DNA from: Bdellovibrionales bacterium
Lineage (GTDB): Bacteria > Bdellovibrionota > Bdellovibrionia > Bdellovibrionales > JAUICD01
NCBI GenBank assembly: GCA_965203275.1
Contig: OZ241865.1
Coordinates: forward strand, 1,696,001-1,760,000
DNA length: 64,000 bases
Reading direction: 5' to 3'
Of the stretch, positions 36,001 through 42,000 are shown piece by piece; the stretch's first letter is position 1; each line of letters begins with the position of its first letter. Made by a program: the position numbers.

Positions 36001-39000
36001 CCAATGTAGATCAAATGGATTTTTTCAGGTTCTTTTTATTTGATGCTCAATTGGTAGATAAGCAAAAGAGAGTTCGAATGTGTTATAAAAAATGTGATAT
36101 GGCTTTAATTTTCAAGCCTATTTTAGAAAATTATGAGGTAAGCCATTTTGATTTTTTAAAACTCACAACACAAGCCATATCAGAGAGCAAAGATTTGCAA
36201 GGGATGGCAGAAGATCAAACGTTGGATGTTGCATTTGATCAATTTTTAAGTGAGTTTTATAGGTTAGAGGTATGAATTCTTTGAATGTTCCCAAAACCTG
36301 GGCCACCGCAAAGCTTGGCGATATTTGTAAAATTAATATGGGACAATCACCTAAAGGTTCAATAGTCAAAAATGATCTCTCTGGTATACCTTTAATTGGT
36401 GGAGCATCAAATATTAAAAATGGTATTATTTTAACGAATAAATCTACAGACTCACCAACAAAATTATGTCAGAAAGGTGATCTTATTTATTGTGTCAGGG
36501 CTACTATTGGAAATTTAAGTATTGCTGATAAAAAATATTGTCTTGGACGTGGAGTTGCTGGAATAACACCGAAGATAAATTCAATTTTTATTCTTTATTA
36601 TCTTAAAAATACAGAAAAAGAATTAACTAAAGAAGCTACAGGATCAACGTTTATTCAGATTGATAAACTAACTTTGGAAAATATCTTAATTCCATTACCG
36701 CCTTTGAAGGAGCAGAGGCGGATTGTTAAGAAAATTGAATCATGTTTTACAAAAATCAACGCCATTGAAGAAAACCTTAATCGTACTGAGGCACTGCTTA
36801 AAAAATTCCGTGAAGCTATTTTAAGTAAAGCCTTTCGTGGTCAGTTAGTACCTCAGGATTCTCAGGATGAGCCAGCTAGCATTTTACTGGAAAAGATACA
36901 TAAAGATTCAAATACAAAAAAAGAAAGGCCAAAACCTGAACTGATCTCTAAGACCAAACAACCTTTTGAAATTCCAAAAACCTGGACCACCGCAAAACTT
37001 GGCGATATCTCTAAAATTAATATGGGACAATCACCGAGAGGTTCAATAGTCAAAAATGATCTCTCTGGTATACCTTTAATTAGCGGAGCATCAAATATTA
37101 AAAATGGTATTATTTTAACGAATAAATCTACAGACTCACCAACAAAATTATGTCAGAAAGGTGATCTTATTTATTGTGTCAGGGCTACTATTGGAAATTT
37201 AAGTATTGCTGATAAAAAATATTGTCTTGGACGTGGAGTTGCTGGAATAACACCGAAGATAAATTCAATTTTTATTCTTTATTATCTTAAAAATACAGAA
37301 AAAGAATTAACTAAAGAAGCCACAGGATCAACTTTTATTCAGATTGATAAACTAACTTTGGAAAATATCTTAATTCCATTACCGCCTTTAAAGGAGCAGA
37401 GGCGGATTGTTGAAAAGATTGAATCATGCTTTGAAAAAGCAGATAGAATTTTAGCCAATATCAAAGCAAAAAAACTTCTGCTCAAGCAACTCAGAGAGTC
37501 GATTTTAAAGAAAGCATTTAAAGGACGATTAGTAGAACAGAGAAAGTCTGAAGGCACCGGCCACACCCTCCTTCACAAACTCCATAAACCCTCTCTCATA
37601 AGGAAATCACATCAAAAATCCTACAAAAATGAAAAAAATAATTGAACAGGATTGATTTTAAATTGGAGCATTTTTGCTGTTTTTCGCCCTCCATCTCCTC
37701 CTTTCCTTTGCACTGTAATCTTTCCTATTTTTAAATTTCCTCTTGGAGTTATTACTACTTCATCCTTAGAAAATAATTGCATAATGTAATGGATGGATTT
37801 TAAAACCCATTGATTTCTATCTTTGATTTTTAAGATAACCAACATCCAATCAGCAGAAAATTCCCCTTGCCCTTTTAATATATCAGAAATAATTATTTTT
37901 TTATTTTTTGAGAAAAATTTTAAAATTTTTTGTTGATCTTTTGGGTCCATTTCATTAAAAAACATTCTTCTCTTATCCTTTAATTGATGGCAACAATCCG
38001 GAGATATCTCTCCAGTAAACATTTTTAAAAGCCTTGCAATATCATCAGGAATATTCCAAATCTCTTTGTATTTATCTACCCATCTTTTATCTACTTGATT
38101 GTATCCTTTAGGATTACTCACTAATTTAATAGATAAATTTTCTATTGAGATATTTTGTTCTGTGTAAATTGTGAGCTTCACTTGAATGTCAGCCTTATAT
38201 TTATTAGACAATTTGATAGCTTTAACATTTTCTATCTCATCGATTACATAACCCATTGCCTTGAGCCATTTTTGAGCTAGCTGGTCTTTTTGCCAATTAT
38301 TAAATTTTTCCAGTACATAAATTTCATTTCTAAAACCTCGTTTAGCAGTTTGTGATCCAATTTTTTTTAGGTTAGCTTTTTTCATATTTCATAATTTTTA
38401 TAATATCAAAGGTTGTTCTTGTTTTATAGATAATGACCTTTTGGGTAAAGTAGAGATTTGTTGATTGTTGTGAATGAAGTCAAGAAGAGCCTGGCTACAA
38501 GCCTTCGCTACATTGACTGTCATGGCATTGCCTGCTTGACTTAAAATTTGATTTTCCGGCACTCTACCTTTGACCTTGCAAGCTATATCTTGAGGAAATC
38601 CTTGCAAAAGTAAAGCTTCATATCCTGTCAGCCTTCTTAATTGACCTTCTCTTACATAAAGTAATCCATGTCGTCCTGTCCTTAAAGTAGGAACTGCCTC
38701 TCTATATAAACGCAAATCTGATTGACGAGTATCAATGATTAAAAATTCTTCTGACATAAGTCGCTTAATAGAAATACATCCTTTATTATATTTATTCTGT
38801 AAATAATTTAAAAAAGTTTGATAAGATTTCAAGCAGTTCTTAAATGCTATGTTGTCTTGGTCAATAAGATATTTTCTTATATTATTCATCTTTGTTTTTT
38901 GAGGATATTGACTAAAATAATCATAAAAAGAGCGATAAGAATATTTTAAGTCATCCTTAATACCTATAAAATAAATTCTCTGTCTTTTATGAGGTAAGCC

Positions 39001-42000
39001 ATAATGGGAGCTATCCATCAGCTTAGCAATAATTTGATAACCTGCTACTTTCAAAAGATTAAATATAGTTTTAAATGTTTGCCCTTGTTGATGATTGAGT
39101 AATCCCTTGACATTTTCTAAAATAAAATATTTTATTTGTTTTGCTTTTAAAATTTCAATCAAGCCAAAAATAATTTGCCCTTTAGGATCTTTAAAGCCTG
39201 ATCTTTGCCCTACAATAGAAAAAGTTTGACAAGGAAATCCTGATAACATGAGGTCAAAATTGGGTATAGCAGAAGGATTGATGTGCATTAAATCTCCATA
39301 ATTTGTCTCTGTATAATCAGAAGTATGATTAAAAAAATGCTTATATGTTTTTTCTGCTTTGGGATCAATTTCTGAAAAGCCGACACACTTCATCCCTAGG
39401 CTTTCTAATGCCAATCGCCCTCCACCAATGCCAGAACAAAAATCAATAAAACTTAATCTCATAAATCCTTCTTTGTGTTGACTTTGATAAGCCTTTTCTT
39501 CGCATAGGTCTACTAAAGTCTACTAAGGTCATCTTCATCTTGAGCTTTGTTGTTAAAAAAATCAATCAGCTTGCGTTGCAAAGGTAAAAAATAAAAGACA
39601 ACCATTGTTTTCACAAATGAACTTATTTACAACAATACAAAATATAGAATCAAAATGTGCTGTTCTTTGTGAAAAACATCAATCAAAATCTATTCAACAA
39701 CCCACCATCTACCCACCGTTTTAATACTAACGGATTAACTCTGTATTCAAACTCAGGCCCATTATCTTAATATTTTAAGAGCTTCTTCTACTTTTATAGT
39801 TATTTGAGAGTTATTCCATAAAAACATTTCATCTAACACATGGGTTTCTGCAATCTTTCTGGCTACATGTAAGCCTAAACAATAAGCACGTATAGGAATA
39901 GGATCATTATTTTGATCTACCGGAGGGAAAAACCATTCAGAGTAAAGATAAAGATGAGGTGCATCATAAAATATATGTAAAAAATCATGAGCCATAAGAG
40001 CTACATTTTCTTGATGACAAGCAATATGTGTCTCTGGATTAATTAAAAGTTGCTGATCAGTTTTTTCTTGAGAGCTTAAAAGCCCTGTTATATAAGTGGC
40101 AAATCCTTCTGACCATAACATAGTGGCCATATTAGAAGTTTGATAGCCGTCTATGGAATCTCTATGCAAAGAAGAATGATAAACATGAAATAACTCATGC
40201 AATAAAATAAGCTTCAATTTTTGTAAAGCCATTTCTGGAGTTACATTCCAAACAATACGATCCACACCAATAAATAAATAAGGCTTTCTTTCTGTCTCAT
40301 CAAAGTCAATCTTTCCCTGAAAAGTTGATAAGGGCATAAAAACAAAAATTATATCTTCCGGTAAATTTGGGAAATATTGTTCAAATATTGCTTTTTGTTC
40401 TAATGCTAAAGATTCAATATGATCAAAAACAATAAGCATTGTTTCTTTAATTTCAGGAAGTGAATGAAAGAAAGCTTCTGTAAGTTTTCTTTTTGAATAA
40501 TCTCTATAGATTATACTATCATAAATATCTTGATATTTTGTTTCAAACTCTTGCCAATGCCTTTCTATCTCTGATTTTTCAGATGTGTTCTGAATGTTCA
40601 AAAGAAAAATCTCAAAATCTTTACCCATATTGATGATTTCTAATCCATAAACTGGAGTTGAAATTTGAATTATGAATAAACAAATAAATAAAAAAAGCTT
40701 CATATTTATACCTCCTTAAAATGATTGATTGAAATATTCTCATAATATATATCGATAGCTTTATTAGCAATGACTTTTTATGGGCGTTATTTTAGGTTAT
40801 TCTTTTGTTTTTACAACATTGAATTTAAGAGATTGCACATATATTTATATTATTATAATATCCTAATATTAGAGTATTATAATATTCTTCTAAGGAGGAA
40901 AATATGTTCATAGTTTTTGTATTTTTATTTTTAGTAGTCCCTGCACCAGTTGTGCTAAAGGCTGATGAAAGACCGCATCTTAAAAATGAAAGCCTTTTTA
41001 GACACTTAGGTAGGAAGGTTAAAAACTTTGGTCAGAAGAATTACGACAGAATAGAAAGACGTGATAGGCAACGTGAAGCATTTCATGTCTGTAGGACTAC
41101 GTGTAGGGATTTGCATAGTTACCACGAGAAGCCTAACCTTAAACCTGTAGAAAAACGCAGGTACTATAGGTATCGCAACAGGGCTATGAATAAATGCATG
41201 AGGAGTTGCTGGATGTAAAAATAACTGCACATATATTTTATATTGTTATAATATTCTGTTTCAATAGGAAGAGTTTTAAGCTTTACAGTATCAAAATAGC
41301 AAGGATGTGATATATGAAATTAGGTACATTAAAAACCAAAACAAACGATGGTCATCTTGTGGTTATTTCTCAAGATAACAAAAGGGCCATTAAAGTGCCA
41401 AAGATTGCACCCTACCTGCAAAAAGCCCTTGACCACTGGCAAGAAGCTTATCCCCAGTTAGAAGAAACATATCAAGCCTTAAATGCAGGTCCTATAGAAG
41501 GGGAGTTTGATGTAGACGAAAATCAATTTCATTCGCCCTTGCCAAGAGCCTATCAGTGGATAGATGGCTCTGCCTTTATTGAACATATTAAATTAGTCAG
41601 AAAAGCCAGAGGTGCCGATTTACCAGATACCCTCACAAAGATCCCTCTTTTATATCAAGGTGGCAGTGATACTTTTTTAGACCCTCGACAAGATATTACT
41701 TTATTGGATGAAGCCCATGGAATGGACTTTGAAAGCGAAGTAGCTGTGATCACAGATTTTGTCCCTATAGGTGTCAGTTCTGCTGACGCTCTCAATCATA
41801 TTAAACTGTTTATGTTGTGCAATGATGTGTCTCTGCGAGGATTGATTCCACAAGAGCTATCTATGGGGTTTGGTTTTTTTGTCAGTAAACCTTCTTCAGC
41901 TTTTTCTCCTTTTGCAATTACTCCTGATGAGTTAGATGGAGCTTGGAAAGAAGGCCGTGTGCATTTACCTTTAAAAACAACATTTAATGGTCAACCCTTT

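Follow-up and report, generated by a model that had tools for sequence, protein, structure and literature searches.

The window, a stretch of 64,000 nucleotides from a Bdellovibrionales genome (G000), covered positions 1,696,001-1,760,000 of contig OZ241865.1, and both window and contig coordinates were used here. G001 was the sister species, and G003 and G112 were further genomes of the order. The relevant features were as follows (window coordinates):

1..64000: purge as sampled in the window, 0 GCGC, 0 CATATG, 1 GTTAAC (934) and 3 GDGCHC (5982, 29019, 29052)
30893..31036, plus strand: three tandem 48-bp repeats in place of the N-terminal part of the following relic (sequence reading)
31036..31407, plus strand: C-terminal remnant of an N6/N4 methyltransferase that may once have recognised GTTAAC (50% identity to a G003 gene)
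31701..37645, plus strand: type I restriction-modification operon adjoining the pair below (Pfam, ORFs)
31701-33158, plus strand: hsdM of this operon
33199-35664, plus strand: hsdR of this operon, followed by an ORF without assigned function
36272-37645, plus strand: hsdS of this operon, with two near-identical target domains
37621..38385, minus strand: R.HinP1I-like endonuclease, 254 aa, open frame, putative GCGC specificity (PF11463, E 1e-78)
38398..39462, minus strand: C5 cytosine methyltransferase of 354 aa with an open frame, putative partner of the endonuclease (PF00145, E 1e-68)

A first-pass annotation had placed a HinP1I-type endonuclease-methylase pair here, and the predicted pair was confirmed as two adjacent open genes matching PF11463, the solved structure 1ynm and PF00145. 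The endonuclease matched PF11463 with 264 bits and 1ynm over its full length (residues 2-245, E 4e-76). Residues E21, D66, K87 and S85 were presumably the catalytic positions; the first three were as in 78-80 of 80 homologues, S85 was shared by 37 of 80, and the protein departed from 7 of 92 near-invariant columns. The methylase was 68% identical to the one adjoining another R.HinP1I homologue and 71% identical to an orphan copy in G112. Thus, the locus resembled the HinP1I system (1ynm, PF11463) in its full-length nuclease match, adjoining C5 methylase and depleted GCGC, although it was known here from sequence and had Ser at the position of Gln in the solved enzyme. The type I operon was not tied to the depleted words, since none of 338 gapped palindromes tested fell below 0.60 of control. 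Other R.HinP1I carriers were mostly mildly depleted in GCGC (median 0.67), with values of at most 0.2 in 7 of the 49 scorable among 80 loci.

Expected site numbers were obtained from a maximal-order Markov model of the whole genome. The reported near-total loss of four words was reproduced, with 31 GCGC sites against 900 expected, 10 CATATG against 449, 19 GTTAAC against 397 and 4 GTGCAC against 161. The other GDGCHC words had been put at 4-15%, which was borne out for GGGCAC (9/219), GAGCAC (32/526), GAGCCC (40/315) and GAGCTC (62/407) but not for GGGCCC (36/67, about 0.54). Repeated DNA made up 18% of the genome, and masking it changed GTTAAC to 18/210 (0.09) and hardly affected the other ratios; the excess of two over-represented words, GGATCC and CGTACG, fell with the mask and was dropped. 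The near-cognates CACATG and CCTATG were also depleted in most frames. As outlined by Rusinov 2015 (PMC4687349), palindromic sites of orthodox type II systems with separate endonuclease and methylase are avoided, also after gene loss, with a cut-off of 0.78. Seven words at 0.02-0.16, together with GGGCCC at 0.53 after masking, lay below this threshold. The depletion was of the type outlined there and represented an extreme level of known restriction-site avoidance, with five words at 0.02-0.09 and a measurable peptide footprint.

The word AGCGCA occurred 9 times in G000 and 636 times in the sister, as had been stated; the earlier counts also gave, here versus sister, 2 versus 29 for RGTGCACY and 1 versus 9 for GCATATGC. 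The claim that the loss postdated the split from the sister did not hold for CATATG (0.26), GAGCCC (0.36) and GAGCTC (0.44), which were already low in 800 kb of sister sequence. Therefore, not all of the loss was later than the split. The two species were only distantly related, with 16S at 94.6%, proteins 68% identical and four-fold sites at 47%, and substitution spectra between orthologues were nearly saturated.

The assembly was a single contig, library types were not on record and sequencing run X6 may be the source sample, all of which would leave room for sequencing or assembly errors at methylated motifs. We nevertheless considered such an artefact hardly credible, in agreement with the first-pass annotation. 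All 13 conserved His-Met pairs shared with relatives were spelled CAC ATG, while CAC made up 21% of His codons, and such codon-aware escapes speak against miscalled bases. Moreover, GCGC was kept at the universal 16S position and at both sites in tRNA-Pro, and the loss was graded among relatives. In run X6, the 8 pieces listed (13.9 kb, with 167 positions a single transition away from a banned word) contained no difference, and none of the 40 read differences listed (751 others being unlisted) created a banned word.

The removal of sites was so complete that some amino-acid combinations became rare in the proteins. His-Met was observed 28 times against 247 expected, the lowest among the dipeptides tested. 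GCGC and GDGCHC jointly ban every G-N-G-C-N-C, so 12 tripeptides have no site-free spelling. These occurred 82 times against 318 expected, a four-fold depletion, compared with 390/414 for reversed controls and 0.71-0.86 in relatives, and they included the five lowest of 5095 tripeptides. A literature search found no paper on such a dipeptide or tripeptide footprint of site avoidance.

Genes were called by a simple longest-ORF rule, and codon tests covered the 1067 ORFs that were poor in repeats and 600 nt or longer. GCGC was lost in all three codon frames (4/126, 2/140, 8/195) and between genes (10/127), as was CATATG (2/140, 5/80, 0/29; intergenic 2/97), and GTTAAC was low in every frame (3/49, 3/57, 6/99). 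The pattern was thus one of synonymous escape where available and peptide loss elsewhere. The G CGC frame was informative because both deamination products change Arg there, and sites were still not kept (the 8/195 above). A CGC codon was preceded by G in 8 of 1555 cases, compared with 13% before CGT. Where the sister had G CGC codons, Arg was retained through other codons in 28 of 37 cases (controls 197/261), and neither His nor Cys was raised at the lost positions.

The first-pass annotation had attributed the erasure to 5-methylcytosine deamination in the absence of Vsr repair. In its pure form, methylated bases would mutate rapidly and constrained sites would be lost by mutational load. 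This accounted fully for GCNGC, a word missed in the earlier reading, whose deamination products were in excess (OR 1.49, 1.26-1.75; relatives 0.90, 0.68, 0.75; share of missing sites seen as product 1.41, 0.62-2.54). Furthermore, three of seven truncated tRNA-Pro copies carried as their sole change a G>A in GCGC, always at the base predicted by deamination, as had been reported, with GCGC kept in the other four. A 16S change GGGCAC>GGGTAC was found in G000 only, there was a slight excess of Val replacing Ala (OR 1.17), and Vsr (PF03852) was indeed found in none of five family genomes. However, it was equally not found in the four relatives, and the explanation was not supported as the main cause for GCGC, which was lost at non-synonymous positions without gain of His or Cys and with little product excess. 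The GCA C difference-in-difference was 0.96 (0.88-1.05; relatives 0.93 and 0.97). The product share for GCGC was -0.87 for Gly, 1.2 with a wide interval (-0.35 to 3.7) for Arg, and 0.40 (-0.03 to 0.86) for Ala before correction, the corrected Ala test showing no excess; for GDGCHC it was 0.09 (-0.49 to 0.72). In G003 the product test gave 1.33 (0.97-1.82), a weak test since it came from 200 kb. In addition, the candidate methylases for CATATG and GTTAAC were of the N6/N4 family, and the CATATG neighbour CACATG was depleted rather than enriched. Thus, mutation as the sole cause was rather unlikely.

Loss of general repair was rejected because UDG, MutL and RecA were present, which likewise spoke against pure mutation. 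A Vsr-like process restoring CpG palindromes was also rejected, with no PF03852 and a sole DUF559 match that was a fragment of a long gene, broken here. Retention of GDGCHC in one frame was dropped as proof of a mutational cause, since both synonymous escapes make GCGC and retention was forced.

According to the cited passages on Helicobacter pylori (PMC10423294, PMC6412003), this species has many methylases, 22% of its type II motifs fall below 0.5, and its ACGT is eroded by deamination with codon-frame bias, a precedent for mutational loss (PMC10423294). GCNGC was eroded here like ACGT there. In contrast, GCGC in H. pylori is methylated and deaminates but is not under-represented in those accounts, with the nuclease in 61 of 459 strains, whereas here its ratio was 0.03-0.04 and the nuclease gene was intact.

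The genome had 30 matches to PF01555 and 3 to PF00145. The window pair would account for GCGC, and for CATATG the candidate was an intact pair at contig 728158-730025, whose nuclease resembled the DpnII/BanI families and whose specificity was suggested by depletion. CATATG was the lowest 6-mer around four close homologues of this pair and the lowest of 2063 6-mers in a separate 400 kb of those four genomes (30 vs 55). The nuclease gene was present in all four, although two were weakly depleted (14/17, 9/13), and neither gene was found in the sister, yet CATATG was low there. Two other candidates for CATATG were discarded: a HEAT-repeat methylase (contig 2179458), whose carriers scored 0.67 against 0.76 in the control set (79 of 80 loci; the one omitted was probably the sister's own), and a relic at 1205493, part of a pair of which G001 and G003 have intact copies, while G003 keeps CATATG. 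Homologue searches, PADLOC, a plasmid search and Atlas gave no specificity names, nor any named NdeI sequence for comparison.

The GDGCHC enzyme would be the C5 methylase at contig 2190540-2191604, whose partner nuclease had lost about 170 residues through an in-frame deletion. Carriers of this methylase had a median observed/expected ratio of 0.21 (46 scorable of 80 loci), the medians of two control sets being 0.77 and 0.81; against this evidence, the carriers were mostly cyanobacteria in which many palindromes are missing. For GTTAAC there was only the relic in the window, which may be M.HpaI-like and which aligned at 50% identity with residues 184-303 encoded by a 320-aa gene that is intact in G003. 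GTTAAC was 12/35 in G003 and 2/9 around 16 homologous loci, the second lowest of 62 palindromes there, with GTATAC equally low. No nuclease lay beside the relic in the window, and an intact nuclease was present for neither GDGCHC nor GTTAAC; such decayed systems fit traces of lost ones.

Across the order, AGCGCA was erased in 3 of 121 genomes (G000, G003, G112), and an orthologue of the window methylase occurred in 2 of 121, both among these three. This supported the proposed link between GCGC depletion and the HinP1I locus (Fisher p 4e-4, with kin not independent). G112 had lost GCGC in all frames (1/17, 1/36, 2/52) and had the methylase, with R.HinP1I not detected; G003 was GCGC-poor, as had been noted, with neither gene detected. 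These losses without a detected nuclease, together with the mixed GCGC product test, ran against a selective reading, as did the tRNA changes at the base expected from deamination, the mostly mild GCGC depletion of other R.HinP1I carriers, the two weakly depleted carriers of the CATATG pair, the low CATATG of the sister and the lack of intact nucleases for GDGCHC and GTTAAC.

Methylases by themselves might make sites costly through lesions, adducts, altered expression or methyl-directed cutting, with no cognate nuclease needed. The G112 orphan would fit this, as would GDGCHC at 2-16% (GGGCCC 54%) despite a dead nuclease and the orphan candidate GTTAAC methylase of G003 with its low GTTAAC. However, recent nuclease loss gives the same pattern, as in the lost-system traces outlined in PMC4687349, McrC (PF10117) was not found in any of five genomes searched, and GCGC persists in H. 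pylori, where the methylase is mostly an orphan. We regarded this explanation as unlikely.

Another scenario was repeated invasion, in which sponge-associated bacteria would exchange the same restriction-modification systems, and a chromosome without methylation would be cut whenever a system re-enters, so that site-poor lineages are selected between residencies too. Several other loci titled Bdellovibrionales were almost GCGC-free (0/9.5, 1/16.8, 1/10.6), relatives had low counts of sites for which no gene was found in them, and relics and deletions indicated turnover. Nevertheless, continuous residence fits these data equally, and R.HinP1I was also present in the 97%-identical X1 strain, suggesting stable residence. 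Repeated invasion was considered improbable.

The probable explanation was that type II systems resident for a long time caused their sites to be selected against, with deamination assisting. Several such systems would have resided in the lineage long enough for host sites to be purged, the cost most likely being occasional cutting before methylation, and deamination would contribute and alone account for GCNGC. A cost of this kind, self-restriction by EcoRI, was shown in E. coli rather than here (Pleska 2016, as summarised in PMC8410138).

Selection and mutation in host site avoidance, and the strength of selection, have hitherto been hard to separate. Both signatures were found in one genome, mutational for GCNGC and selective for GCGC and CATATG, and the peptide costs bound the strength of selection. 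Few sites were left, so each can be checked for methylation, and the comparison gave a testable specificity for the 728-730 kb pair. The new elements were the candidate enzymes (the CATATG pair and the GDGCHC methylase), the proteome footprint and the recurrence in 3 of 121 genomes. More speculatively, and with a rather small chance of being right, self/non-self discrimination may have moved from methylation towards site absence, making aggressive or relaxed nucleases affordable, as the depleted near-cognates CACATG and CCTATG might suggest, at the price of a censored proteome in which interlocking bans make peptides forbidden, recurrently in small-genome sponge-associated Bdellovibrionota (G000, G003, G112). 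If true, this route would be readable from proteomes alone and could assign enzyme specificities.

CpG loss in Mycoplasma with M.MpeI is a related case. A literature search found no paper on cyanobacterial multi-palindrome loss; near-total loss of several words was also seen in the cyanobacteria-rich set, with TTCGAA at 0.09 and GTCGAC at 0.08.

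The near-disappearance of GCGC, CATATG, GTTAAC and GDGCHC words from this genome (G000) was an extreme instance of a known phenomenon, restriction-site avoidance, with a footprint in peptides. The counts of the first-pass annotation were reproduced exactly over the 2.57-Mb genome (observed/expected: GCGC 31/900, CATATG 10/449, GTTAAC 19/397, GTGCAC 4/161). Its range of 4-15% for GDGCHC words did not apply to all of them, since GGGCCC stood at 36/67. Repeated DNA made up 18% of the genome, and once it was masked GTTAAC was at 18/210. Among 121 genomes of the order, AGCGCA was almost gone in three (9 copies in G000, 15 in G003, 18 in G112), the remaining genomes having at least 193. 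CATATG relative to GTATAC was 0.04 in G000 and 0.63 in the sister (G001); the other 119 genomes were at about 1 or higher.

The sister was a distant relative (16S 94.6%, proteins 68%, four-fold sites 47%). Over 800 kb, its observed/expected ratios were 1.24 for GCGC, 0.71 for GTGCAC and about 1 for GCNGC, a further depleted motif of G000; CATATG (0.26), GAGCCC (0.36) and GAGCTC (0.44) were low. The proposed loss since the split stood for GCGC and the T/A-containing GDGCHC words, which, like GCNGC, were lost in this lineage alone, but not for CATATG and GRGCYC, whose loss was common to both genomes and weaker in the sister. Titles of the nearest-homologue records, and a sponge metagenome run with pieces at 97%, suggested that the organism was probably a sponge-associated member of the Bdellovibrionota. 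With repeats masked, other words were also depleted genome-wide: CTGCAG 0.28, GCCGC 0.32, GGTACC 0.53, GATATC 0.53, GGAACC 0.54, CTCTTC 0.55 and ACCGT 0.55. In 16S (L002), G000 alone among six compared genes had GGGTAC, the other five having GGGCAC or GAGCAC.

Several observations bore out that base calling was not to blame. All 13 His-Met pairs shared with relatives were spelled CAC ATG, CAC being 21% of His codons (p ~2e-9), and GCGC survived at a universal 16S site and at tRNA-Pro sites. Listed read differences created no banned word (0/40), and run X6, which may be the source sample, showed 0 differences over 8 listed pieces. The codon evidence outweighed the read comparison because differences were known for listed pieces alone, library types were unrecorded and X6 was possibly the source. 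Window 44341-45674 and 49677-51000 had very high contig depth and many joints in all four runs, and matched an abundant repeat family.

His-Met was the lowest dipeptide of G000 (28/247); even with CAC as the sole His codon, 52 would be expected. The sister stood at 28/74, and G003 and G004 had normal values. Since GCGC and GDGCHC together ban every G-N-G-C-N-C, 12 tripeptides (Cys/Gly/Arg/Trp-Ala-His/Pro/Gln) had no site-free spelling. They stood at 82/318, against 390/414 for reversed controls and 0.71-0.86 in relatives, and supplied the five lowest of 5095 tripeptides. Val took a small part of the lost places (OR 1.17) and Thr none. We found no earlier report of such a footprint in a search of open-access papers.

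As annotated, the window held an R.HinP1I homologue and a C5 methylase, both intact. The nuclease was found in G000 alone among the 121 genomes; the methylase occurred in two, the second being G112. Around other R.HinP1I loci (49 scorable of 80) the median GCGC ratio was 0.67, and 7 were at or below 0.2, so G000 was in the tail, yet not alone.

Deamination of G(5mC)GC gives GTGC or GCAC, and predicts that sites are kept where both products alter the amino acid and that products pile up elsewhere. This held for GCNGC: the Ala-Ala frame had its sites at 671/652 and 568/618, against 3/68 and 1/47 in positions where deamination is synonymous, and the product excess was in line with the missing sites. 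As the Ala-Ala frame offers no silent escape, the product excess alone was discriminating. For GCGC, the suggested loss by 5mC deamination failed the prediction. The G-CGC frame was at 8/195 without a rise of His and Cys, and orthologous Arg was retained there in 28/37 cases vs 197/261 in controls. No product excess appeared in the Gly test or the corrected Ala test; the uncorrected Ala test gave a product share of 0.40 (-0.03 to 0.86), and the Arg test gave no discrimination. To judge from the GCGC>GCAC change in three truncated tRNA-Pro copies (possibly two events), deamination probably happens at GCGC, but it does not account for its loss. Vsr was found in none of five family genomes. In H. 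pylori, GCGC is kept despite methylation and deamination, according to PMC10423294 and PMC6412003. CATATG and GTTAAC were lost in every possible frame. Two mechanisms, mutation at GCNGC and probably selection at GCGC and CATATG, were separable within one genome. Two overlapping odd tRNA-Pro calls at window 25127-25292 matched neither real tRNA-Pro and were probably false calls derived from repeats.

Both other AGCGCA-poor genomes count against the favoured reading, selection through cutting by the cell's own nucleases. Over 400 kb, G112 had lost GCGC in all frames and carried the methylase as an orphan. Other words were erased as well in this second such genome of the order: CACGTG and GACGTC were at 0 and RCATGY near 0. 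Ratios in its stretches L422-L441 were 0.06 for GCGC, 0 for GACGCC, below 0.1 for ACATGC/ACATGT and 0.33 for CTAG. G003 (L023-L032) was GCGC-poor as had been noted (10/104), with CGCG at 2/48 and GAGCTC at 4/30; its split C5 methylase, of another kind than the window's, adjoined a SacI-family nuclease. Recent loss of the nuclease would explain both genomes; according to PMC4687349, traces persist after restriction systems are lost. A less likely alternative is that methylation itself may be costly.

Candidate enzymes for the other words were as follows.

Contig 2190540-2191604: C5 methylase, GDGCHC candidate by fit to depletion around carrier loci
Contig 2189982-2190623 (L044:897-1538): its candidate partner nuclease, with an in-frame deletion of ~170 residues, adjoining the intact methylase
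Contig 728158-730025: CATATG candidate pair, N6/N4 methylase and DpnII/BanI-like nuclease
Contig 2301276-2302286: third C5 methylase, with a small PD-(D/E)XK neighbour

The first methylase fits as the GDGCHC enzyme: around its carrier loci (46 scorable of 80) the median ratio was 0.21 vs 0.77 and 0.81 in controls, a comparison confounded by cyanobacteria being most carriers. Four carrier loci near the list top had GDGCHC at 0 of 11-16, three titled Methylococcales-type bacteria and Crenothrix. The partner nuclease lacked about residues 124-293 of 364. The pair at 728158-730025 fits CATATG. Nine homologues were found, of which 4 were close; CATATG was the lowest-ranked word around these 4 (3 vs 11) and, in separate DNA of the same genomes, the lowest of 2063 words (30 vs 55; per genome 14/17, 9/13, 5/13 and 2/11). 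In G000, near-cognates were depleted in most frames genome-wide (CACATG/CATGTG 0.25-0.77 and CCTATG/CATAGG 0.32-0.88 by frame) and CGTATG was mildly enriched. Relaxed recognition is one reading of the depletion; CACATG and CCTATG were not depleted in other carriers of the pair. For GTTAAC there was, as stated before, only a methylase relic (window 31036-31407). The third C5 methylase is a candidate for the GCNGC enzyme, by elimination and likeness only.

An hsdS-type type I specificity subunit (window 36272-37645) had two near-identical target-recognition domains, so a symmetric bipartite site was expected; none was clearly avoided. A DUF559-bearing gene (L412), whose product has 1400-1500 aa in both G001 and G003, was broken over several frames in G000. 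Paralogous long N6/N4 methylase genes were clustered by type III res genes at contig 735451-741620 and 2169313-2182726.
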